A stretch of 35,154 bases of DNA. It comes from a virus. Its lineage: Duplodnaviria > Heunggongvirae > Uroviricota > Caudoviricetes. The position numbers were made by a program, and so were the translations under genes. Every line of letters starts with the position of its first letter. Position 1 is the stretch's first letter. The stretch is from IMG/VR virus record IMGVR_UViG_2913152634_000005, one strand, 5' to 3'. Below, piece by piece: positions 10,566-27,536 of this stretch. The notes below the pieces were generated by a model. The model was not told where the DNA came from, did no database searches, and saw only the letters and a program-made list of their open reading frames with translations.

Positions 10566-11329
10566 TACCTAATTTTTAACCTCAACTGATTAAATTTCGG
10601 TCAAACATCCGTTAGTGAAATACAAGTTGCTATGTAAATACACACCTGCAACTTGTATTACCAACCAAGTTTAGCTCCCGATATTACTCATTTCCATTAT
10701 TTTTCCTTGGCTAGCGCTTCGTCGAACATTTTTACGTGTTATCTTCAAGGTAGATGCTCGCAGAAATGATAGTACCACCGATTCGGCGTTGACCATAAGC
10801 CAGCAGAACAAGATCCCCTTGGCCGGTTGTATTCGTTACACCACCAAATGCATAGAATGCCTTGTTATCAGTATCTTGCTTACTCGGCTACCCACAAGAT
10901 TGTGGGGATAGCATTTGAGCAACGTAGCCTATCGTCACAGAAGCCCCTACTACAAACATCATATTACTGGACGCTATACGCGCTCCTGACATTCAGATAG
11001 ACACAGCAACGCAAATCATTTGCAGCAGACCAGAGCTTTTACTTTCCACAATAACTGGCACAAATACGAATTTCCCGACCCTCAGTAGAGAGCACAAGCG
11101 CATCTTTTCCAATATTCTGTTTCCTATGAAAAATACAGAATGTCAGCTCGCGAAATTTACTAGTATTCAGATACTTTTCTAATCGAACCTCTCAGTTTAA
11201 TCGTCATCATTACCTTATAGCTCTGCATTTCGAGTTCCTACAGTAGAGTAAGTGTTCAGTAACCCAAGTTCAGGAGAAAGGAAACGATCATGCCATTTTC
11301 AGTCCCAAATAATGCTTTCCATTTCCTTT

Positions 11330-11480
11330 CTTTTCAGGTGGTGTTTTAAATAAAAACATAAAGTTACGGCGAAGAAGAACGGAAACGCCTTAAACCGGAA
11401 AATTTCCATAAATAGAGAAAAACTGCGCGCCTTCCGCCCCGTAACGCTCCGGATCACCGGAAAGGACCCGCTCAAAAAAA
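11330..11480. other. cos-like DNA packaging site of the integrated element (cosB/cosQ conserved, cosN divergent)
   Basis: About 150 bp with roughly 85-90% identity to the prophage cos region at 27122-27270; cosN position reads GGGCGGAAGGCG versus GGGCGGCGACCT. Confidence 0.7.
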
Positions 11481-11513
11481 GCGGCCACTGACGTGATTGT
11501 TTATGTTCCATGA

Positions 11514-11545
11514 GCGACAAAACCGCCCGGAGGCGGTTTCACATA
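11514..11545 (-). terminator. rho-independent terminator after the gpI-like gene
   Basis: minus-strand CCGCC-tccg-GGCGG stem followed by TTTTG. Confidence 0.5.
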
Positions 11546-11557
11546 AAACATTCTGCA

Positions 11558-12205
11558 TCAGCGACCAATCACCACGATTTCACCACCATCACCTTCATCA
11601 GCTGTGCTGATCTCCTGAGATACCACACGTGACCCCACGCGCATTTCACCGTACAGAACAGGCAGGACATTGCCCTGGGCAACCATGTTATCCAGTGACG
11701 AGAAATACGTGTTCTGCTTACCGTTATCCGTTGTCTGTGTACGGGGAGTTCTGGCTTTCGGTGCCAGCATCTGAGCCACACCGCCAAGGATCATACTGGC
11801 CCCCGCACTATACATTCCTGTAATTGCTGCCGCTCCTAGCCAACCAGCGGGGTTCCACCACGCCACCGCAATCAGCGCCGCCCCCAGCACGGTCTGAAAC
11901 ACACCGCCACTTTTAGCGCCAGCAAGACGCGGTACGATGTGGATCACAGCACCATTCGCCAGCGGCTCATTAAGACGGGCTGATAATTCATTTTCGCCTG
12001 CATCCCGCCCGGCAATCCGTACCTGATACCAACCGTCGCTCAGTTTCTGACGAAACGACGGTAGCTGTGTGGACAGAGCTCGGATGGCTTCAGCCCCCGT
12101 TTTTACACGAAGGTCGATGCGGCGGCCGAATCGTTGCAAATCCCCGTAAAGGCAGATTCGTGCCATGCCCGATGACGCCAGAGGGAGTGTGTGCGTAGTT
12201 GCCAT
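11558..12205 (-). CDS. I: lambda gpI-like tail assembly protein
   Basis: 215 aa; MATTHTLPLASSGMARICLYGDLQRFGRRIDLRVKTG...NTYFSSLDNMVAQGNVLPVLYGEMRVGSRVVSQEISTADEGDGG closely matches lambda gpI as remembered. Confidence 0.8.
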   Translation of the reverse strand: MATTHTLPLASSGMARICLYGDLQRFGRRIDLRVKTGAEAIRALSTQLPSFRQKLSDGWYQVRIAGRDAGENELSARLNEPLANGAVIHIVPRLAGAKSGGVFQTVLGAALIAVAWWNPAGWLGAAAITGMYSAGASMILGGVAQMLAPKARTPRTQTTDNGKQNTYFSSLDNMVAQGNVLPVLYGEMRVGSRVVSQEISTADEGDGGEIVVIGR

Positions 12206-12245
12206 TTGTCGGTATACCTCTCTCGTTTGCTCTGTTGTTCAGAAA

Positions 12246-12629
12246 TTAGCAGATCAACTTATAGCGTCCCTTCCGAGCATTGCGGCGTACACGTTCAATC
12301 TTGAGGCATAGCGCCGCATCTGGCTTTTTTGGGACTGGTACACGGCAATATTCAGAAGCGCGAGGAATATTATTTATCCAGTCAATCACTTCGCTTAAAT
12401 ACCAGGCCTTACGCCCTTCCGTAACCTGCACACGCTCCGGGAACTCTCCACGGGCCTCAAGGTTTAGCAGTGTACGACGACTCAGGGTTGTAAGTTCCAT
12501 CACCTGATTCATATCAACAAGACGCTCGCTTAAACGCATTTTGTCAGCGATAGCTTTTAATTCCTCTACAGCTGGATTTGGGTACATAATTTCGGCAATT
12601 GGCTTAAGGTCATTGTAATGATTCTGCAT
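12246..12629 (-). CDS. AlpA/MerR-like winged-HTH DNA-binding protein (function uncertain; candidate packaging-specificity factor)
   Basis: 127 aa; HTH segment MELTTLSRRTLLNLEARGEFPERVQVTEGRKAWYLSEVIDWI; strong RBS aaggggga. Confidence 0.55.
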   Translation of the reverse strand: MQNHYNDLKPIAEIMYPNPAVEELKAIADKMRLSERLVDMNQVMELTTLSRRTLLNLEARGEFPERVQVTEGRKAWYLSEVIDWINNIPRASEYCRVPVPKKPDAALCLKIERVRRNARKGRYKLIC

Positions 12630-12640
12630 TGTATCCCCCT

Positions 12641-12982
12641 TTACACACGAGCCAGCGGCTGAACAGAAATACCTGAGCCAACAAACGCTGCAACCTTTAC
12701 TGACAGTTCTTTTACAGACTCAGGCCAGTTCAGAGCATCAACATTTAAGACACCTGTCTTATAGACCTGAGCCTGTGTTTTTTTCGCGGTGTCGATTTGT
12801 ACAGCGGATACATAAACCGCTTTACCTACGCTCGTACCATCCCATACCACCAGTGCACCTGTTGCATCTTCCTGCATCAGTGGCGTAAATGCAGGAATTA
12901 CCCCTTTATTAGCTGAAAATATCCCCAGCGTAGTAACCAGTGCTTCAGTGCCAGCCATGAGTTCAGTGTAATGAGTAGCCAT
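12641..12982 (-). CDS. head decoration protein, distant lambda D homologue
   Basis: 113 aa; TPLM...LVVWDGTS.GKAV...Y.KTG...WPE...AF.GSGIS pattern parallels lambda gpD; translationally coupled to the capsid gene. Confidence 0.6.
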   Translation of the reverse strand: MATHYTELMAGTEALVTTLGIFSANKGVIPAFTPLMQEDATGALVVWDGTSVGKAVYVSAVQIDTAKKTQAQVYKTGVLNVDALNWPESVKELSVKVAAFVGSGISVQPLARV

Positions 12983-12991
12983 TGCTCCCCC

Positions 12992-14038
12992 TTAGCCAAT
13001 GCGAACGGTAACAAAACGATTGATGCGGGCCGGTATTGGCTGTGGTGCTGAATGTGTCTGCACATATTCAATAGCCGGATCACCAGGCACAATATAGTTT
13101 TTCGGTGCAAGTTCGGCTTTAGTCAGCCCCATTCGGATTAGCTCCGGATCCTGAATACCGCCATAGGCGACAATCCCCTGAAGAGCCGTATTGCCAAGCA
13201 CCATCAAATCAGGATCAAGGAAATGTTTTTCAGTTCCGTCCTCGTCGGTATAACGCCCGCTGTAAACAACAATCGCAACATCGCCCATATACCCTTTAAA
13301 ACTCACCGAATCACCAAGGTCTTTAAGGGCCGTTTCCAGTTCGGAATTAGAACCACGACGGGTATCCAGAGCCTCTTTTATCGCTCTGAATGAACGGTAT
13401 TTCTTCCATACATTACCGCCCATAATGATGATATTAGTGACGCCCTCACTAAATTCTGCGTAGTTCTCAATATCATCATTTGGATCAAAAGTTTCTTTAT
13501 CCTTACCTGACCACTCAGCACCGCCAGACTGAGTGATGATATTTTGTGGTTTAATATTCCAGTCCAGCTCATAACGTTCAATACCATCGCCCTCAATGAT
13601 ATTTTTCCCCGTTGTGATTGCCTGAACGGCAAGCCATTCAATACGTGCACGAATAGCTTTAGCTTGATTTACAATCGCCTGTTTAACTTTAATATTACGC
13701 GCCCCAAAAGCATTGTATTGCTCAGGTGATACACCAGCAGGGCGCACAGCTAACTTATTTGGATCAATGCTGCTTTTCGGCTTCATATAGCCTGGACGAA
13801 TTGTTTTTGATTCGTACCCTTCGTCACGTGAAACTTTACTACCCACCATAGGAGAACAAAACGCTGCAATTGGGATATTTGGATCGTCGATTGTATCAAG
13901 AATAATATCGCGCGATTCAAACATTACCGAGCGAGTAAAAAACAAACGGGTAAACAACGCATTTAGTTGTTTTTGTACATCTACAGCATTAACCACCTGT
14001 ACAAGCTGGGTAGGCGAATATAAATCAACCATACGCAT
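12992..14038 (-). CDS. major capsid protein, lambda E-like, encoded by the integrated element
   Basis: Conserved blocks ITQSGGAEWSGKDKETFDPNDDIE, DTRRGSNSELETALKDLG, YMGDVAIVVYSG, LGNT shared with lambda gpE at roughly half identity; start at ATG 14036-38 or 14030-32. Confidence 0.82.
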   Translation of the reverse strand: MRMVDLYSPTQLVQVVNAVDVQKQLNALFTRLFFTRSVMFESRDIILDTIDDPNIPIAAFCSPMVGSKVSRDEGYESKTIRPGYMKPKSSIDPNKLAVRPAGVSPEQYNAFGARNIKVKQAIVNQAKAIRARIEWLAVQAITTGKNIIEGDGIERYELDWNIKPQNIITQSGGAEWSGKDKETFDPNDDIENYAEFSEGVTNIIIMGGNVWKKYRSFRAIKEALDTRRGSNSELETALKDLGDSVSFKGYMGDVAIVVYSGRYTDEDGTEKHFLDPDLMVLGNTALQGIVAYGGIQDPELIRMGLTKAELAPKNYIVPGDPAIEYVQTHSAPQPIPARINRFVTVRIG

Positions 14039-14249
14039 CCTCTTTGCATTCATTAAAAATAATTGTGGATATATGCTATCACCGATATTTGTCATGCGAA
14101 TACATGCAACCGAGTGCAATGTTGTATAAAGTTTTGGGATGACAACTTCAGCGCGGATAATTAGTGTTAATATCTTCACTCCCTTTGGTCGGGATTTATG
14201 TAGCATGCCGGAAAATTTATTTTTTTCCGGCCTTTTTTATTGGCAATAT

Positions 14250-14699
14250 TTAAAACGGAATATCATCTCCCCATTGCTCATTATCTCCCACTGGTGGATG
14301 GCTTCCTTGCTGATCTGCCTGTTGTTTTGCTCTGTTCAGTGCGTCAGTAGCCTGCCCCTGTTGGCCTTTTTTGCCGCCCGGTCGCACCGTTCGCGCACTG
14401 ATTACGCTGTCTGCGATAACCTGCCAGCCCTGCCGCGTTTCACCGTTCTGTCCAGTCCACTGACTCACCTGCATGTTACCCGCCACGCTCAGGAGTTCGC
14501 CTTTGTGATGCTTTGCCAGCGCGTCGGCTTGTCTGCCAAACGCCAGAACAGATAACCACATCGTCGCCTGACCGTCATCCGATTGGCTGCAGGGCAGTGA
14601 TACCGCCATACGCGCCAGCGTCATGGGGGTGCCCTTGCTGGTCTGTTTTGTCTGCGGGGCGTCCACCAGCCGCCCGTAAGCTGCTATTTGCGCCGTCAT
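14250..14699 (-). CDS. ssb: single-stranded DNA-binding protein
   Basis: 149 aa; OB-fold SSB pattern, Gly/Gln-rich linker and C-terminal acidic tail DDIPF. Confidence 0.85.
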   Translation of the reverse strand: MTAQIAAYGRLVDAPQTKQTSKGTPMTLARMAVSLPCSQSDDGQATMWLSVLAFGRQADALAKHHKGELLSVAGNMQVSQWTGQNGETRQGWQVIADSVISARTVRPGGKKGQQGQATDALNRAKQQADQQGSHPPVGDNEQWGDDIPF

Positions 14700-14953
14700 G
14701 CTGCCTGCTCTCCGGACTTAATATTGATGGTTGTCACTTCCTCCGCTTCGGCAATCTCCCGTTCGGTCAGCGTGGCAAAGTTTGCAGCCGCCGTTGTCAT
14801 GAATGCGCTTATCAGTTCGGGATGTGCTTTCGCGTATCCTTCCCCGGCGTTGCGGTCTATTGCCTTAATCGCCACCCTTAGCCAGTGTTCAGCCATATCA
14901 AGGGCGCGGTAATGTGGCTTTATATGTTTGTTCAGTTTTCCTGATGTGTGCAT
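14696..14953 (-). CDS. hypothetical protein, translationally coupled to ssb
   Basis: 85-aa ORF; stop overlaps the ssb start. Confidence 0.4.
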   Translation of the reverse strand: MHTSGKLNKHIKPHYRALDMAEHWLRVAIKAIDRNAGEGYAKAHPELISAFMTTAAANFATLTEREIAEAEEVTTINIKSGEQAA

Positions 14954-14989
14954 TTTTATTTTTACCCCCTCGTTTAAAAAGTTTTTTGT

Positions 14990-15240
14990 GCACCACCACC
15001 TTGTCTACCTTGTCTACCTGATTAGTTATCAGGCCAGTAATGGCGCGGGTTTCAGGGAGGTAGACAGCCCCAAATAGCTGTCTACCTCATCTCTACCCGT
15101 CTCCTTACCTGTCTACAAAAATGGGTAGATAAGGTAGATAACAGGTAGACAGTGAAAAATAGTTATCTACCTGCATTAATACATTGAAATAAAAGTATTT
15201 TCTTTCAGTCAGGTAGACAAGGTAGATAACCATTGCCATT
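14990..15240. repeat. iteron array, putative replication origin of the element
   Basis: At least ten copies of GGTAGACA/GGTAGATA and their complements TGTCTACC in both orientations, directly downstream of the helicase gene. Confidence 0.7.
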
Positions 15241-15242
15241 TT

Positions 15243-16334
15243 TTATAAAAACGCATCGCAATCATCAGTAGTCGTTGCGTTGGTCTGCGTGACTCCCTTA
15301 ACTTTTCGCGTAATATATTCATATCCGTAAACTTTCGCCGCTGACCTCATAGCCTTTCCGAACTCATTCACGCTCAAACATTTCCCCTTTCCTGTGTATG
15401 CCATGAAGGCCATATAGACACGGTAAAGGCTGTTTCTGGTCGTGTACTTCACGGAGTCACCACCACCGCCCATCATTAGCCCACGAGCTTCCTCCAGAAA
15501 CTCAAGCGCCGCGCAAAGCTCAACAACTGGATCCGTTTGCTGCTTTATTGCCAGAGCTTCATCACCGTCACGCTGTTCCAGTAGTAAAGCCCTTGCCTTT
15601 TCAGGGTCAGCAAAGTTAGCCAGCAAGCGGCGGATAATTACGGGGATTTCTGCCGCTATCTTTTCCGGTAATTCCTTGTCTTTTTCGTCCTCCCTTACAA
15701 TGTTGTCGAACCGGAAAATCACCCGACGGCGTGACACACCTCCGGCCCGTTCGGTAAAGATCATCGGGTCGTTATTGGTTGCCAGTACCACCGCCCTTAT
15801 TATCGTCGTGAATCGCTTCTCATATTTCGGATTGATTTCAACGGGATCGCCTCCCGTGATTTTCTTGATGCCCGTGCCTTCCCCCGTATATTTCGGCTGA
15901 TCGGCAAGGACGATAAGACGACTCCCGACAACCTGCGCGCGCCCTCCTGCATCATCGAGTGATGTCATCTCTGCGCTTACGGTGTTCTGTTTGCCTGCAA
16001 GCAGGGTGGCAATATGGGTAAATGTACTCTTACCGCTTCCCCCGTCTCCGGTGGCCTCAATGAACATCTGCCAGTCGTAGCGGTTCGCCATAATCATGTA
16101 TAACGCGGCACATATACGCATCATCTTGCGCGGGTCTTTTCCTGCAGCATGTTCAAGCCATTTATGGAAATTTGGCGCATTATCGCGGATGTTTTCCCCT
16201 GCTACTGGTGGCGTGTACTCAATACCATTGTGCGTGGTGCTCCAGTGCTCCGGCGAGTGCGGAGAAAATTCCCCCGTTTTCAGATTAAGCACACCATTAG
16301 TGAACGGTAGCAAATCACCGGACGGCTCCCCCAT
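15243..16334 (-). CDS. replicative helicase domain protein (P4-alpha/D5-type, SF3)
   Basis: 363 aa; Walker A GDGGSGKST, Walker B LIVLADQP; FTNGVLNLKTGEF motif typical of the D5_N/primase linker. Confidence 0.8.
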   Translation of the reverse strand: MGEPSGDLLPFTNGVLNLKTGEFSPHSPEHWSTTHNGIEYTPPVAGENIRDNAPNFHKWLEHAAGKDPRKMMRICAALYMIMANRYDWQMFIEATGDGGSGKSTFTHIATLLAGKQNTVSAEMTSLDDAGGRAQVVGSRLIVLADQPKYTGEGTGIKKITGGDPVEINPKYEKRFTTIIRAVVLATNNDPMIFTERAGGVSRRRVIFRFDNIVREDEKDKELPEKIAAEIPVIIRRLLANFADPEKARALLLEQRDGDEALAIKQQTDPVVELCAALEFLEEARGLMMGGGGDSVKYTTRNSLYRVYMAFMAYTGKGKCLSVNEFGKAMRSAAKVYGYEYITRKVKGVTQTNATTTDDCDAFL

Positions 16335-16993
16335 GGGGCGGCAATAACTTTTAACGCTTCCACGGCGTTATTGATTACGCGTTTGCTGAACGTGGCCCTG
16401 TGCTCTGAATAGATCGCCACCATTTCGCGGCTCAGCTCCATTGTGCTGACCGGACACCATACCCCGCCGCGCCATACGTGGACGATTTCACTTTCTGCAT
16501 GAACACAAACACCATCAAAGCGATCGGCAAGTAGTTGTGCCCGCTCACTGTCTGCCATCTGTGAAAGTTGCGCCTTTTGCTTCGTCGGAAGATTAAGCAC
16601 CAGGCTTTCCCCACGCTCGCATTCCTCTTTGAGTCGCGGCAACTGGTCGGATAAATCCACAGGGCTGGTGTCAGTAATCCCCGCGTATTCGTGTACGGTC
16701 TTCACTCCAGCCACAGCCAGTAACGTAACAATCTGCGTCATGCTGTGCTCTGTGATATGTCCTGCGCGGTAAACACGCACACACTGACGATCTTCATCAA
16801 TGATCCGGTAATCGGTGATGTTTTTCAGTTGCTCATCAGCCAGCACGACAGGCGGCACATCGTCGGCGGCAATATGTTTACCCGCCCATTCCTGCCACTC
16901 TTTCGCATGGCTCCACGCATCACTACCTGCAAAGATGATTACCTCTGTCAGTCTGTCGCGTGGCTGTTTTTTTAAGTTCGGTGCCAGTTTCAT
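16280..16993 (-). CDS. primase-like replication protein, N-terminal module (overlaps the helicase ORF by 55 nt in another frame)
   Basis: 237-aa ORF upstream of the helicase; the overlap suggests one primase-helicase gene split by a frameshift. Confidence 0.5.
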   Translation of the reverse strand: MKLAPNLKKQPRDRLTEVIIFAGSDAWSHAKEWQEWAGKHIAADDVPPVVLADEQLKNITDYRIIDEDRQCVRVYRAGHITEHSMTQIVTLLAVAGVKTVHEYAGITDTSPVDLSDQLPRLKEECERGESLVLNLPTKQKAQLSQMADSERAQLLADRFDGVCVHAESEIVHVWRGGVWCPVSTMELSREMVAIYSEHRATFSKRVINNAVEALKVIAAPWGSRPVICYRSLMVCLI

Positions 16994-17289
16994 TTTTTGC
17001 CCCTGAATGCGTTAATCATGCTTTTCATTTTCTGGATGTTTCCCCGCGCTTTTTCCCTGCTGGTGGGCTTACTGCGGGGTGCGGCATATACCAGGGAAAA
17101 ATCACGCCGGAACTGATAAACAGGCATCACGCAGTCATAGCTATACCCCTCACGGCGGTAAGTGATGCGCCGTTCTGCCACGCCTTTAATCGTTACCGTG
17201 CCGCCGTATTTATCGCGGTAAATATCGCCGTTCATAAATTCAGGCCGAGCGGGGCCGCTGGCAATAAAGCCAGAATTTTTCATTTCCAT
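16990..17289 (-). CDS. hypothetical protein
   Basis: 99-aa ORF, stop overlaps the primase start (ATGA). Confidence 0.4.
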   Translation of the reverse strand: MEMKNSGFIASGPARPEFMNGDIYRDKYGGTVTIKGVAERRITYRREGYSYDCVMPVYQFRRDFSLVYAAPRSKPTSREKARGNIQKMKSMINAFRGKK

Positions 17290-17306
17290 ATTATTTATTC
17301 TTCGAC

Positions 17307-17528
17307 TTAACTCGACTTATTTGATAGCAGGGCACTATTTATTGCGTCATTGAGTTTTTCTGCTGCTTCATCAATAAGTGACAACAGGCCATAAGCAATA
17401 TTTGCATCTTCATTGTCATTTATGCAATCAAGCCACATATTTAATATTGCTTTTGCTGAATTATTTAAAGTTAATGAACTCTCTGCACATGCTAACAATT
17501 TAAAAAAGACTTCTCGTTCTGTATTCAT
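17307..17528 (-). CDS. hypothetical protein
   Basis: 73-aa ORF in a tightly packed leftward operon. Confidence 0.35.
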   Translation of the reverse strand: MNTEREVFFKLLACAESSLTLNNSAKAILNMWLDCINDNEDANIAYGLLSLIDEAAEKLNDAINSALLSNKSS

Positions 17529-17720
17529 TTAATCCCCCACCAGCTTACTTTCTTCCTCAATCAGGAAACTAGCGACACTTCCCGAAAGGCGCGCCAGTAG
17601 GCTCGCCAGCGCGGATATATCAGCATCTGTAATTTTGTTCGGGTATACCTCAAGAAGGCGGCAAATAATCTCTGTTTGGTGCGCACGTTCAGCGGCTTCG
17701 TGTAATGTGATTTCCTGCAT
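17529..17720 (-). CDS. hypothetical protein
   Basis: 63-aa ORF abutting its neighbours. Confidence 0.35.
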   Translation of the reverse strand: MQEITLHEAAERAHQTEIICRLLEVYPNKITDADISALASLLARLSGSVASFLIEEESKLVGD

Positions 17721-17905
17721 TAATGCACCTCTTTTAATTCATACACTGCTGAAATAATGACTTGTGATAAGCCATATTCTGATGATTCGCTTCTCACCGC
17801 AGCAATAGCCGTCTGAACATTAACAGCCTTCACGTTCTGAGCGATACCAATTGTGTGGCCTCGTGGGTTAACAGCTCGGGCAAATACACGGAAGGTTTTA
17901 AGCAC
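17720..17905 (-). CDS. hypothetical protein
   Basis: 61-aa ORF abutting its neighbours. Confidence 0.35.
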   Translation of the reverse strand: MLKTFRVFARAVNPRGHTIGIAQNVKAVNVQTAIAAVRSESSEYGLSQVIISAVYELKEVH

Positions 17906-18161
17906 GGCGCACCTCCTGACGAATACGGGCAGCGAATACCATCACGCAGCCAGTTGGGGATTGCTGGCGGGCTTCCTGTTCGCTGATGGCCTCGATGGTA
18001 ATCACGCGCGGTTGTGCCGTACTCAAGGCGATAAAACGCCAGATGTATTTATTCAGGTTGTGCGAGTTCCGCCCTTGCGGGTGTGTGGTATGATTTCTCA
18101 TAGCTACCTCGATACTGTTGCTATCGTTGGTGGTTAAACGCCCTGTATGTGTTGCGAGCAC
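17898..18161 (-). CDS. hypothetical protein, first gene of the leftward operon
   Basis: 87-aa ORF starting next to the divergent promoter region. Confidence 0.35.
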   Translation of the reverse strand: MLATHTGRLTTNDSNSIEVAMRNHTTHPQGRNSHNLNKYIWRFIALSTAQPRVITIEAISEQEARQQSPTGCVMVFAARIRQEVRRA

Positions 18162-18196
18162 TGCAGGGCGTTGTTCCAGAGCAATAAAACATGATA

Positions 18197-18240
18197 AGGT
18201 GTGTACCTATCAAGAAGCATACTAAGCAATAGGTACATAC
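18197..18240. promoter_or_regulatory. inverted-repeat operator in a divergent promoter region
   Basis: TGTACCTAT (18202-18210) and ATAGGTACA (18229-18237) form a 9-bp inverted repeat immediately upstream of the RHH gene. Confidence 0.45.
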
Positions 18241-18435
18241 ATGTCAACTATCATTCAGCGCGATAAACAGCCGAAAGGTGCTGGTAAGGCACCGGCATTT
18301 CAGATCCGTATCAACCCGGAACTAAAAGAACAAATGGTTAGTGCGGCTGCAAAAGAAGGAATGAGTTTGGCTAATTGGCTTAAAGAACTAGCAAGAGCAG
18401 AACTACGCAAACAAGGTATTGAACCTAGAGGTTAA
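18241..18435 (+). CDS. ribbon-helix-helix DNA-binding protein (repressor or antitoxin-like)
   Basis: 64 aa; beta-strand FQIRINPEL followed by two helices (KEQMVSAAAKEG / MSLANWLKELARAEL), typical of CopG/Arc RHH proteins. Confidence 0.55.
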   Translation: MSTIIQRDKQPKGAGKAPAFQIRINPELKEQMVSAAAKEGMSLANWLKELARAELRKQGIEPRG

Positions 18436-18459
18436 GACTTTTAAAAGGATCTGTGAGAG

Positions 18460-19185
18460 ATGCAAAATCTAAAACGAATAAGTGAATATAATTTAACAGA
18501 CAATCCTATCCCACATTATTTCCCTCATGATAGTAGATTCCTGTCTCTACTTGGGAAATTTTCGTTCCGACTTGAAGATCTAATAGTATTTCACTCATTT
18601 GTTTATCATACATATAACATAAATCTTAAGGAGATACAAAAAATTGCAGATAACACTCCCCAATATAATCCAGACTTATTAGACGATGAAGAGCATGAAA
18701 TGGCCTTGATTTCTCAAGCCAGACATAGAGAGAGGGTTGGTTATTATGATGATCTTAATAGAAAAGCCTCATTTTTTGCCAATGACAGTGTCGTAATTAA
18801 TCTTTGGGCTATTATTGAACAGTTTAGTACCATGGCATACTCTTTGCTAGAAGCAATTATTAAAGAAATACCTGAAAATCAAGTTAAAGTTCCATATACA
18901 TGGGATAAATTAAAAAAGAAATACTTAAGTTATGGTATTGACCTCTCCCAACTTGATTCTTACGATGTCATTAACGAAACTAGGGTTTTAAACAACAAAA
19001 TCAAACACCTTTATATTGTCGATGAAAACCTTGCCTCTTTTCCTTTTTTCAAGGACAAAGAGAACAAGTCATTATTAGGAATGGAATATAGGCTTCAAGA
19101 TTATGTTATTGGAACTCATAAGTTCATCGGGCATCTTTTAGAGGATTGCTCCATAAAATTAGGAAATAAGGCAAACATGATTTAA
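18460..19185 (+). CDS. hypothetical protein, AT-rich cargo gene (candidate toxin or defence effector)
   Basis: 241-aa ORF 24 nt after the RHH gene; no family recognised; visibly AT-rich. Confidence 0.5.
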   Translation: MQNLKRISEYNLTDNPIPHYFPHDSRFLSLLGKFSFRLEDLIVFHSFVYHTYNINLKEIQKIADNTPQYNPDLLDDEEHEMALISQARHRERVGYYDDLNRKASFFANDSVVINLWAIIEQFSTMAYSLLEAIIKEIPENQVKVPYTWDKLKKKYLSYGIDLSQLDSYDVINETRVLNNKIKHLYIVDENLASFPFFKDKENKSLLGMEYRLQDYVIGTHKFIGHLLEDCSIKLGNKANMI

Positions 19186-19189
19186 ATTA

Positions 19190-19222
19190 ATTAGGTAGGT
19201 AATAAACCTACCTAATTGAAAT
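19190..19222. terminator. bidirectional terminator hairpin between convergent genes
   Basis: Perfect palindrome TTAGGTAGGT-aataaa-CCTACCTAA. Confidence 0.55.
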
Positions 19223-19225
19223 GAT

Positions 19226-19459
19226 TTACTTATTTAAGTACCATTCCCCACGAATCCACGCCTGCACCTCCGAAAGGCGATATGCTACGGCAGTGGCACC
19301 TATTTTAATTCGCTTTGGAAACTTTCCTTCTTTCTCTAACTTCCATCGAGTGCTATTAGCAAGAGTAGTTAACTCACGGCATTCTTTCTCACGGATCATT
19401 CGGTCAATGTTAGGAATGTATTCCAGACCCTTTTTATCAACAATTGCCATTTTTTTCAT
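19226..19459 (-). CDS. alpA: AlpA-family excisionase/transcriptional regulator
   Basis: 77 aa; HTH CRELTTLANSTRWKLEKEGKFPKRIKIG; immediately downstream of int. Confidence 0.7.
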   Translation of the reverse strand: MKKMAIVDKKGLEYIPNIDRMIREKECRELTTLANSTRWKLEKEGKFPKRIKIGATAVAYRLSEVQAWIRGEWYLNK

Positions 19460-19460
19460 G

Positions 19461-20573
19461 TTAACCAGCCTTTTGTTTGAGGATTGTCACTTTTGAATCA
19501 GCAGCTGCGATGCTATTGAGATATGTAGTCCAGAGTTCCAGAGCATCCAGTTTTTTAGCCATAAACTTACTCCGGTTGTAAACACCTGCCACGCCAGGTA
19601 GCGCATGGCCTAACAGTTGTTCTACTACATAAAATTCAACACCGAGATCACTTAGATGAGTAGATAGCGTTCTTCTAAGGTCGTGTAGTGACCATTGTTT
19701 TTCATGGCCCAAACGTTTACCGATTTTCCCCCCAATCTTGCTTACGCTTTCTCTAATTCGCAGACTTCCCAGCACATAACCAGTATGTTTTGTCTCTTCG
19801 TGAACATCCGTTACCCACTGTCGTAGAATTTCAGGTACTGGTCTGACGATTTCAACACCAGTTTTTGAGTGATCTTTTGGTACAGTCCAAACCCAACTTT
19901 CGAGATCCCATTCGCTCCATTCTGATAATCGGGCTTCACTCATTCGACATCCAAATACTGTACAAAGCACAAACATTTTTCGCGTGTATTCAGACATTAG
20001 TTTTAAATCAGGCTCGACAAAAATTGCCTTCCAGAGCTGGCCGAGTTCGGCTTCATCCAGAACCCGATCCCGCTTACCTGCAATCTGCCCCACATCACTC
20101 ATGCGCAAATCCTTTAAAGCATCACACGTCGCGTACTGGCGTACCCGACAAAAACGAAGAGCTAATTTAGTGTCAGAAAAAACATACGCCGCCATAACTG
20201 GTGCATTACTTTTAATTCGGTCAAAACAGTCCAGCCATTCATATAGGTGAGTGTCATTTACGGGCAAATGACCGATATAGGGAAAGATATGCTTTCGAAA
20301 TCTGCCAAGCGTTACAGCATGAGTTTTACGACGCACCTTACAGTAATTTTCATACCAGTAATTTAGTGCATCCTCCACTGTGACCGGCTTTAAGCGTTCT
20401 TCAGCCTGAATCTTAATCTGGATACGCGGATCACGTTTGTCAGCCAACCAAGCACGGCACTCGTCGCGCTTTTCCCTTGCCTGTTTGAGTGACATATCAG
20501 GATATTTACCCAACGTTAGCCAGACCGGAGCAGCCCGGCCACCTGCTAACCTGTAGAAGAAAACAAAGCTCAC
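19461..20573 (-). CDS. int: tyrosine integrase (P4-type), catalytic portion; N-terminal arm-binding segment lies in another frame at 20573-20695
   Basis: 370 aa with R...HDLRRT...LLGH...Y tyrosine-recombinase motifs; ORF 20570-20827 encodes the expected N-terminus MAGENKLSDKALKGYLGKPREKQITIADGKGLSIRVSTKGL and stops 1 nt out of frame. Confidence 0.8.
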   Translation of the reverse strand: MSFVFFYRLAGGRAAPVWLTLGKYPDMSLKQAREKRDECRAWLADKRDPRIQIKIQAEERLKPVTVEDALNYWYENYCKVRRKTHAVTLGRFRKHIFPYIGHLPVNDTHLYEWLDCFDRIKSNAPVMAAYVFSDTKLALRFCRVRQYATCDALKDLRMSDVGQIAGKRDRVLDEAELGQLWKAIFVEPDLKLMSEYTRKMFVLCTVFGCRMSEARLSEWSEWDLESWVWTVPKDHSKTGVEIVRPVPEILRQWVTDVHEETKHTGYVLGSLRIRESVSKIGGKIGKRLGHEKQWSLHDLRRTLSTHLSDLGVEFYVVEQLLGHALPGVAGVYNRSKFMAKKLDALELWTTYLNSIAAADSKVTILKQKAG

Positions 20574-20827
20574 AGCCCCTTGGTACTCACACGAATAGAA
20601 AGCCCCTTTCCATCAGCAATGGTGATCTGCTTTTCTCTGGGTTTCCCCAGATATCCTTTAAGTGCTTTGTCGCTCAGTTTGTTCTCGCCAGCCATTTTTA
20701 GCCCCAAAAAGCAATACAAGCTGCAATACAGAGATGATTGCAACACACAGATAACGAGGAAAATCCAGTGAAAGCGCCAGATAAACTTATTCTTTATTAT
20801 CAAAAGATTAAGTGTAAAAACCAGCAA

Positions 20828-21103
20828 CTACACGAAAGCCTCAGAAAGCCATGCTAAGTGCTTCGGCTTGACATATCCCGGCGTAAATTCAGAGGTGGAG
20901 CCGCCACGGGAGCGGATAACCTCACCGGAAACAATCGGCGAAACGTACAGCGCCATGTTTACCAGCCCCGGAATTTGTGAGAGATAGACTTTCTCCGTGG
21001 TGAAGGGATAGCTCTCACGGAAAAAGAGACGCAGAAACAGCGGATCAAACTTAAATTTCTGCTCATTTGCCGCCAGCAGCTGGGCGGTTGTGTACATCGA
21101 CAT
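20828..21103 (-). pseudogene. E: major capsid protein E, 5' fragment (codons 1-84 plus 9 element-derived codons)
   Basis: MSMYTTAQLLAANEQKFKFDPLFLRLFFRESYPFTTEKVYLSQIPGLVNMALYVSPIVSGEVIRSRGGSTSEFTPGYVKPKH matches lambda gpE 1-84, then LAWLSEAFV-stop. Confidence 0.88.
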
Positions 21104-27047: not shown

Positions 27048-27119
27048 TGTTCATTCCACGGACAAAAACAGAGAAAGGAAACGACAGAGGCCAAAAAGCT
27101 CGCTTTCAGCACCTGTCGT

Positions 27120-27245
27120 TTCCTTTCTTTTCAGGGGGTATTTTAAATAAAAACACTAAGTTACGACGAAGAAGAACGGAAACGCCTTAAACCGGAAAAT
27201 TTTCATAAATAGCGAAAACCCGCGAGGTCGCCGCCCCGTAGCCTG
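27120..27245. other. prophage cos site (cosB, cosN at 27216-27227, cosQ)
   Basis: Minus strand reads ...CAGGCTACG GGGCGGCGACCT CGCGGGTTTTCGCTATTTATGAAAATTTTCCGGTTTAAGGCG..., the lambda cos as remembered. Confidence 0.85.
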
Positions 27246-27536
27246 CCGGATCGCCGGAAAGGACCCGCAAGCGTTCTGGTTTATTCGCAATGAATTCAAT
27301 GTCTGACAGACCAGCGTCGTGCGACCACGGTCGCACGCTCCTGAATACATGCCCTGTTTCTTCCACCCTCGCACAAGACTGGCGAGCATGAGGGACAAAC
27401 CCGCGAATCATTAGCGCGGTAAAAACCCGGTGTGCATCGTTTTGATTATTCCCGCACACTCGCGCAGAAGGAATTCCCCGTCGGGCTACGGTCATGGTTA
27501 ATGCGGGAATACGGCGACGATACAGCGCATAATGTG

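Follow-up and report, generated by a model that had tools for sequence, protein, structure and literature searches.

An 11.4-kb helper-embedded satellite inside a lambdoid major capsid gene, with an integrase frameshift that is most likely an assembly error

We analyzed the integrase region (positions 19461–20827) of IMG/VR virus record IMGVR_UViG_2913152634_000005, a stretch of DNA of 35,154 nucleotides that is referred to below as the window. This region is very probably the integrase end of an 11.4-kb helper-embedded phage-inducible chromosomal island (HE-PICI) of the 11capE group (E:Phage_cap_E:80), and the break in the integrase reading frame most likely arose as a sequencing or assembly error. 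The type of satellite, its location in a capsid gene, and its repeat motif are already known, having been published in 2023 (PMC10111431). The type element, Eco567.11capE, is an 11-kb island of Escherichia coli NRG857c located in the capsid gene of an icd prophage (Tommasini, Mageeney & Williams 2023, NAR Genom Bioinform, PMC10111431), and the same study listed 201 instances at the site E:Phage_cap_E:80.

Results

Location of the satellite in the helper capsid gene

The satellite, counted with one copy of the core, spans positions 9445–20858 (11,414 bp). A lambdoid prophage is interrupted by this insertion near codon 80 of its lambda-E-like major capsid gene, and the satellite and the capsid gene have the same orientation. 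The two fragments of the capsid gene (Table 1) join at position 77–78 of the Pfam Phage_cap_E profile, in agreement with the published insertion position of ~80. In two sibling loci, L001 and L003, the counterpart of the 5′ fragment is annotated as a partial major capsid protein. The helper genes nu1-A-W-B-C-D lie upstream of the satellite, and FI-FII-Z-U with a truncated V lie downstream; int, alpA, and the primase gene are on the minus strand, which corresponds to the arrangement of an HE-PICI. Within the satellite, int-alpA...primase...capsid/decoration...cos follow one another on the strand that also encodes E. The first-pass annotation of this DNA had missed the defining biology of the locus: an element with its own capsid gene interrupts the major capsid gene of a phage.

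The junction between int and the capsid gene was found in 173 complete E. coli genomes. A scan of species-representative genomes returned three loci, one of which (L008, from Kluyvera) contained no more than the 110 C-terminal residues of the integrase and lacked the motif pair. The window contains no tRNA gene, and a tRNA-targeting island was rejected for this reason; int does not adjoin a chromosomal gene either.

An empty site was identified in L013 (GCA_000352465.1, KB733108.1; locus 2984–4009), a related copy of the IS3-truncated helper remnant in which E is intact and encodes 341 residues. When the left part of attL was joined in silico to the right part of attR, the product encoded KPKHEVN and was identical to this empty site. 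The satellite is hence polymorphic among copies of the dead helper: it was either excised or integrated after the helper had been truncated.

The reading frame of the integrase gene

The integrase gene starts with the ATG at 20695–20693 on the minus strand, reads MAGENKLSDKALKGYLGKPREKQITIADGKGLSIRVSTKGL, and stops at the TGA at 20572–20570, just past a G4 run. The frame is broken after codon 40, and the 370-aa open reading frame (ORF) at 19461–20573 continues in the next frame. This confirms the earlier claim that the frame breaks at the G4 run, 1 nt out of frame with the 370-aa ORF. The accompanying claim that the ORF at 20570–20827 encodes the arm-binding N-terminus stood only in part, because this ORF contains just the first ~40% of the domain, and its first 44 codons, read from a TTG, are upstream non-coding sequence. 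On the Pfam Arm-DNA-bind_3 profile, the N-terminal fragment covered positions 1–30, and the 370-aa ORF covered positions 33–79, followed by the SAM-like and catalytic domains; in an intact homologue, positions 1–79 were covered in one piece. The break is therefore located inside the arm-binding domain and not after it.

As written, the gene is not the continuous ORF with arm-binding and catalytic domains that defines a P4-type integrase. When one G was added, such an ORF was restored. The resulting 411-aa integrase was identical at all 411 residues to that of the sibling L005 and at 408 of 411 residues to that of the NRG857c type element (WP_000896726-type Int), which places it in the 11capE integrase clade. 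In the type element and in L002, a Lys codon is written AAA, which makes the in-frame run G4. Because the window keeps AAG at this codon, its G4 run is truly one base short when compared with its own lineage.

Origin of the frameshift

The first-pass annotation had offered two alternatives: an inactivated integrase that locks the element in place, or a homopolymer sequencing error. Our comparisons lean clearly to the latter, as the variant is a singleton, the lineage-mates have G5, a second contraction occurs in the primase gene, and L004 has neither contraction. Among 5,426 complete E. coli genomes, the 45-mer with G4 was absent from all, and the 46-mer with G5 was present in 30. No exact product of the 370-aa integrase ORF or of the 237-aa primase fragment was found in an index of 153 billion gene positions. 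G5 and C5, together with the intact 411-aa integrase and the intact 583-aa primase, were found in L001, L003, L004, and L005, and all five near-identical siblings have G5 and intact genes.

The second private contraction, from C5 to C4 on the coding strand, is located at 16335–16338 in the satellite primase gene. It splits the 583-aa protein into the ORFs 16280–16993 and 15243–16334; when one C was added, the product was identical to that of L005 over 583 residues. The alignment of the window with L001 (strain 2015C-4136CT1) showed 99.95% identity over 28.3 kb, with 11 substitutions and two indels. The alignment with L003 (strain Z1323HEC0355) covered all 35,154 bases; besides the two indels seen with L001, it contained 12 substitutions and a difference of one 9-bp tandem unit. 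L004 and L005 were located through a peptidase variant common to them and the window. L004 differed from the window over 13,317 bp by no substitution and only two indels, both of them contractions of a G/C run from 5 to 4 nt (one in int and one in the primase gene), and L005 differed over ~13 kb by one substitution and the same two indels. Throughout its 35 kb, the window has only three private changes, namely these two contractions and one substitution inside a multi-copy IS3. In mutation-accumulation data for E. coli, real indels are about ten-fold rarer than substitutions; for this reason, two indels with no substitution in 13.3 kb are improbable as neutral evolution and typical of residual assembly error.

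From these alignments, we conclude that the integrase frameshift is most likely a homopolymer error of the assembly. Three observations weigh against this conclusion. None of the 127 A/T runs of 5–8 nt differed in the part aligned to L001, compared with 2 of the 27 G/C runs of at least 5 nt, which is unlike a crude homopolymer error. Both contractions lie in the two essential genes of the satellite, and selection on int is expected to be relaxed in a dead helper that lacks the early region and the tail genes G–J and is cut by IS3 at both ends. The second of these observations lacks significance (p ~0.3), since the satellite contains 15 of those 27 G/C runs, and the location of both indels there was rejected as a sign of selection.

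These observations could be accommodated if the frameshifts were real and the satellite were decaying, trapped in a dead, IS3-truncated helper. The loss of int and primase would then preclude excision and replication, and E would be split for good. Homopolymer slippage is the commonest class of real indel, and the concordance of the long A/T runs would also fit. However, the five siblings keep both genes intact in the same dead-prophage context, even though they differ from one another by ~10 substitutions per 30 kb. The variant was found in no other assembly, and the two indels with no substitution relative to L004 also count against decay. We consider such decay unlikely. Still less credible is that the contractions were both real and selected, such that the knockout of int and primase would lock the satellite in E and thereby fix the inactivation of a lambdoid prophage with nleB2 and nleC as cargo, a form of satellite-mediated prophage domestication.

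A programmed or regulatory −1 frameshift, in which tRNA-Gly would slip back on the G run (AAG GGG C, ..G GGG then GCT) to yield a low level of full-length integrase, was also considered. If the ribosome slipped by −1 at the G4 run, the wild-type TKGAVSF could in principle be regained. In contrast, every homologue examined (L001–L007 and L017) and the 30 genomes with the G5 46-mer have a single continuous ORF, and a slippery heptamer of the X XXY YYZ type is absent. Other members of the group read AAA GGG GCT in frame (site codons AAA GGG instead of AAG GGG), so a frameshift at this site is not conserved. Since neither the out-of-frame arrangement nor the slippery site is conserved in the homologues, programmed frameshifting was rejected as having practically no chance of being correct.

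Of note, L015 (CP148527.1) was compared with positions 1–12673 of the window, and seven of nine substitutions were G>A or C>T changes at GATC sites; L015 also splits the Abi_C gene there. This pattern looks like the base-calling artefacts caused by Dam methylation. Because L015 differs mainly at GATC sites, systematic errors appear to occur in public assemblies of this locus.

Doubled arm motif at both ends of the satellite

The exact 9-mer TGTATTGCA occurs three times in the window, each time on the minus strand (9531–9539, 9543–9551, and 20722–20730). The count expected from shuffles was 0.40, and 1 of 100 shuffles reached three copies. Further copies with one mismatch are located at 20710–20718 and 20739–20747. 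Both clusters, one at each end of the element, contain a co-oriented pair of TGTATTGC half-sites with a spacing of exactly 12 bp. Over the whole window, neither the number of TGTATTGCA copies with one mismatch (9, with 11.1 expected) nor the number of GTATTGC copies (7, with 5.1 expected) was above chance. The signal of the repeats thus resides in the exact copies, their clustering, and their conservation, and not in the raw count.

The first-pass annotation had listed two repeats at 9531–9552 and two to three at 20711–20748, all in the same orientation. The pair at the former position and the common orientation are correct. Of the copies near int, the third lies outside the published doubled motif and is degenerate in relatives as well (GTGTTGC or GCGTTGC, the latter in Kosakonia and Cedecea), so that the accurate count there is two plus one weak copy.

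In five elements from Escherichia, Kosakonia, and Cedecea, each end has a GTATTGC pair with the same orientation and 12-bp spacing, and the distance of this pair from the crossover varies by no more than ~1 nt across the five elements and three genera. The P arm is mostly unalignable among them, and the doubled motif provides the only invariant columns there. The integrase is 88% identical to that of the Kosakonia relative and 83% identical to that of the Cedecea relative.

In HE-PICIs, the doubled motif tgTGTATTGCantgTGTATTGCa occurs twice per attP, 81 ± 2 bp upstream of the center and as a co-oriented copy 132 ± 2 bp downstream (PMC10111431). Its sequence, positions, and co-orientation were all found at both arms in the window. 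The earlier proposal of arm-type repeats at both element ends is therefore well founded: the clusters flank the true split-capsid junctions, and they match the published family motif in sequence, doubling, orientation, and spacing, with a function that is predicted. As in the attP sites of lambda and P4, short repeated sites are present on both arms at fixed distances from a short core, and the integrase has an N-terminal arm-binding domain. Unlike in those sites, the four half-sites here all form co-oriented tandem pairs, and their role as arm sites is a prediction from sequence.

The authors of the 2023 study suggested that the four half-sites bind either the arm domains of an integrase tetramer or AlpA or another protein (PMC10111431). 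The TGTATTGC pairs are the conserved attP arm motif of the family and can be read most simply as four predicted sites for the arm-binding N-terminal domains of the integrase tetramer. An arrangement of four half-sites in one orientation, with two on each arm and a constant distance to the crossover, is the classic arm-binding geometry of a tyrosine-recombinase tetramer, and the integrase has, as judged from the intact homologue, a full Arm-DNA-bind_3 domain. The motif also tracks the integrase clade across 14 target sites (PMC10111431). A point against this assignment is that fis-PICIs with closely related integrases have no such motif, with AlpA as the alternative binder (PMC10111431). In that case, the pairs would not be arm-type sites but would serve as operators or as architectural sites, either for AlpA as the director of excision or for a different DNA-binding protein of the satellite. 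The P′ pair does lie in an operator-like position, between a promoter-like site (20818–20789) and the ATG of int. This site was the single weak one found upstream of the P′ motif in a promoter scan and was taken as a hint only. Our literature search found no later experimental work on what binds the motif. Given the geometry and the association with the integrase clade, we regard binding by AlpA or another protein as the less probable of the two, and as rather doubtful.

Attachment junctions

The attB sequence of the L013 empty site is GTCAAGCCGAAGCATGAGGTG. The published identity blocks of attL and attR are agccgaagca and aacccaagca (PMC10111431). Both are represented in the window, where the two junctions (20859–20868 and 9445–9454) carry different published variants, AGCCGAAGCA at attL and AACCCAAGCA at attR. 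The copy in the window is therefore a hybrid in which only AAGCA is common to both junctions (7 of 10 positions identical). Such hybrid junctions would mean either that strands are exchanged in AAGCA or to its right, or that mismatches are tolerated in the overlap.

Other genes of the satellite and the helper remnant

The coordinates of the features are collected in Table 1. In addition to the genes listed, the satellite encodes Icd-like, DUF4222, ssb, and second AlpA-like products, and its E-like capsid gene is divergent from that of the helper. The cosB side of its cos-like region is nearly identical to that of the helper, and the 12-nt cosN differs in its second half (GGGCGGCGACCT in the helper and GGGCGGAAGGCG in the satellite). 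The equivalent cos match in 11capE is 258 bp long with 90% identity (PMC10111431). A lambda gpI-like tail assembly gene is located at 11558–12205 of the window, and the annotation of the siblings adds a remnant of an adjacent tail gene. Together with the E-like and D-like genes, these fit the published ‘late gene capture’.

Plus-strand accessory genes were observed near both ends of the satellite, at 9804–10565, 18241–18435, and 18460–19185; they encode an Abi_C abortive-infection protein, a HicB-like antitoxin, and a 241-aa protein. At the equivalent position, HEPN and DUF262 genes occur in the type element; this difference suggests swappable defense cargo. A perfect 9-bp tandem repeat, ACCTTGTCT, present in 2.4 copies at 14998–15019, lies in a gap of ~290 nt downstream of the primase stop (15243) and upstream of the ORF 14696–14953. 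L003 has one unit of ACCTTGTCT fewer. A second 9-bp repeat, GGTAGATAA, is present twice at 15124–15141. These 9-bp repeats may be iteron-like repeats of a replication origin.

The helper is a remnant. Copies of IS3 cut the replication gene P (from 34780 onward) and the tail tube gene V (~5405–6618), and the tail genes G–J, the immunity and early region, and the prophage integrase gene are missing from the window.

Table 1. Positions of the satellite and helper features in the window
Feature	Positions	Strand	Basis or remark
Helper major capsid gene, 5′ fragment (82 codons; ends ...GYVKPKH, then satellite DNA)	20858..21103	−	Pfam Phage_cap_E positions 1–78
Helper major capsid gene, 3′ fragment (resumes ...(H)EVNPQMTLRR)	8664..9444	−	Pfam Phage_cap_E positions 77–328
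Integrase gene, P4-type tyrosine recombinase (Arm-DNA-bind_3, SAM-like, and catalytic domains)	19461..20695	−	Pfam; 1235 nt here, 1236 nt in relatives
G4 run, one G fewer than the G5 of lineage-mates	20576..20579	−	Alignments with L001, L003, L004, and L005
P′-arm doubled motif TGTATTGCAgctTGTATTGCt	20710..20730	−	Starts 131 nt from attL core center; 15–35 nt upstream of int ATG
P-arm doubled motif TGTATTGCAtgaTGTATTGCA	9531..9551	−	Ends 84 nt from attR core center
Third, degenerate half-site TGTGTTGCA	20739..20747	−	One mismatch; outside published doubled motif
attL crossover block AAGCA within AGCCGAAGCA (left satellite junction, read along the int transcript)	20859..20863	−	Comparison of attL, attR, and attB
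attR crossover block AAGCA within AACCCAAGCA (right junction)	9445..9449	−	Comparison of attL, attR, and attB
Predicted satellite attP, containing CATGTAACCCAAGCACTTAGC			
alpA, AlpA-family regulator, excisionase-like, directly downstream of int	19226..19459	−	Pfam Phage_AlpA, E = 6.5e-15; RefSeq annotation of sibling
Satellite primase/helicase gene (D5_N, DUF5906), split by C5-to-C4 contraction	15243..16993	−	Pfam; alignment with sibling
Satellite lambda-E-like major capsid gene	12992..14032	−	Pfam Phage_cap_E, E = 4.5e-41; 346 aa in siblings
Satellite gpD-like head decoration gene	12641..12982	−	Pfam HDPD, E = 4e-15
Satellite cos-like region	11322..11471	−	87% identical to helper cos at 27119–27268
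lom and tail fiber gene, past truncated V			
NleG-like type III effector gene, past truncated V	2396–2974		
Type III effector gene nleB2, past truncated V	1054–2034		
Type III effector gene nleC, past truncated V	1–1020		

Discussion

Comparison with known satellites

The satellite shares with Eco567.11capE the target codon in a lambda-E-like capsid gene, the orientation, the sequence of the P′ arm, and the doubled TGTATTGC motif on both arms. The AACCCAAGCA block at attR and the cos-like segment are also common to both, and the late zone (capsid, decoration, and AlpA-like genes) is 97.8% identical at the DNA level. In contrast, the middle part is mosaic, and identity between the primases is only ~75%, over a short stretch. 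Different accessory genes are present (Abi_C and HicB-like in the window, HEPN and DUF262 in the type element), and attL also differs, being here the AGCCGAAGCA variant, with only AAGCA identical between the junctions. Furthermore, the helper is an IS3-truncated remnant here and a 50-kb icd prophage in NRG857c, and only here do int and the primase gene each have a private one-base contraction.

Like the Gram-negative PICIs represented by EcCICFT073, the satellite is ~11 kb long and combines int-alpA with a divergent regulatory zone, a replication zone that encodes a primase, and a lambda-type cos through which a lambdoid helper would package it. Unlike this satellite, which sits inside the capsid gene of its helper and has its own capsid and decoration genes, those PICIs use chromosomal genes at a distance from the helper as integration sites, and their action is exclusively in trans. 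A satellite-encoded major capsid protein is also a feature of the capsid-forming PICIs (cf-PICIs), such as EcCIEDL933. However, cf-PICIs carry a full head module with portal, protease, connectors, and small terminase. The Pfam scan, which covered part of the small ORFs, and the RefSeq annotation of the siblings yielded only capsid, decoration, and gpI-like genes in the satellite, and a cf-PICI was rejected.

Proposed mechanism

In NRG857c treated with mitomycin C, the composite of helper and satellite excises and replicates, and the satellite is then excised precisely, as determined by qPCR and deep sequencing (PMC10111431). Excision in this type strain is the experimentally demonstrated step of the mechanism proposed here (PMC10111431), and we infer the others. 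Upon induction of the helper, the composite would be excised and replicated. The P4-type integrase, together with AlpA, would then recombine attL with attR at the short core that contains AAGCA, which would release the satellite as a circle and make the capsid gene E intact again. The satellite would presumably be packaged through its lambda-like cos site and would supply its own E-like and D-like head proteins. In the sequence as written, the loss of one G from the G5 run would interrupt this pathway by breaking the integrase in its arm-binding domain; as discussed above, this loss is most likely a homopolymer error of the assembly.

Meaning of the frameshift and of the locus

If the frameshift were true, a protein that starts past the break would begin partway into the arm-binding domain and, judging by lambda Int, could not assemble on the arm sites, so that the satellite would stay in E. 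Even then, a locked element would change little at this locus, because the helper is already a remnant that is cut by IS3 on both sides and has lost most of its tail genes and its early region. As a caution, a frameshift of one base in a homopolymer, when private to a single assembly, should be confirmed with reads before the gene is regarded as inactivated. The window contributes three things to the known group: another copy, this one in a helper remnant eroded by IS3; hybrid junctions, which would place the crossover in AAGCA or to its right; and a probable artefact in int. The biology of the locus is that described in 2023, including the repeat motif: the satellite keeps the capsid gene of its helper split until excision and brings a capsid gene of its own.

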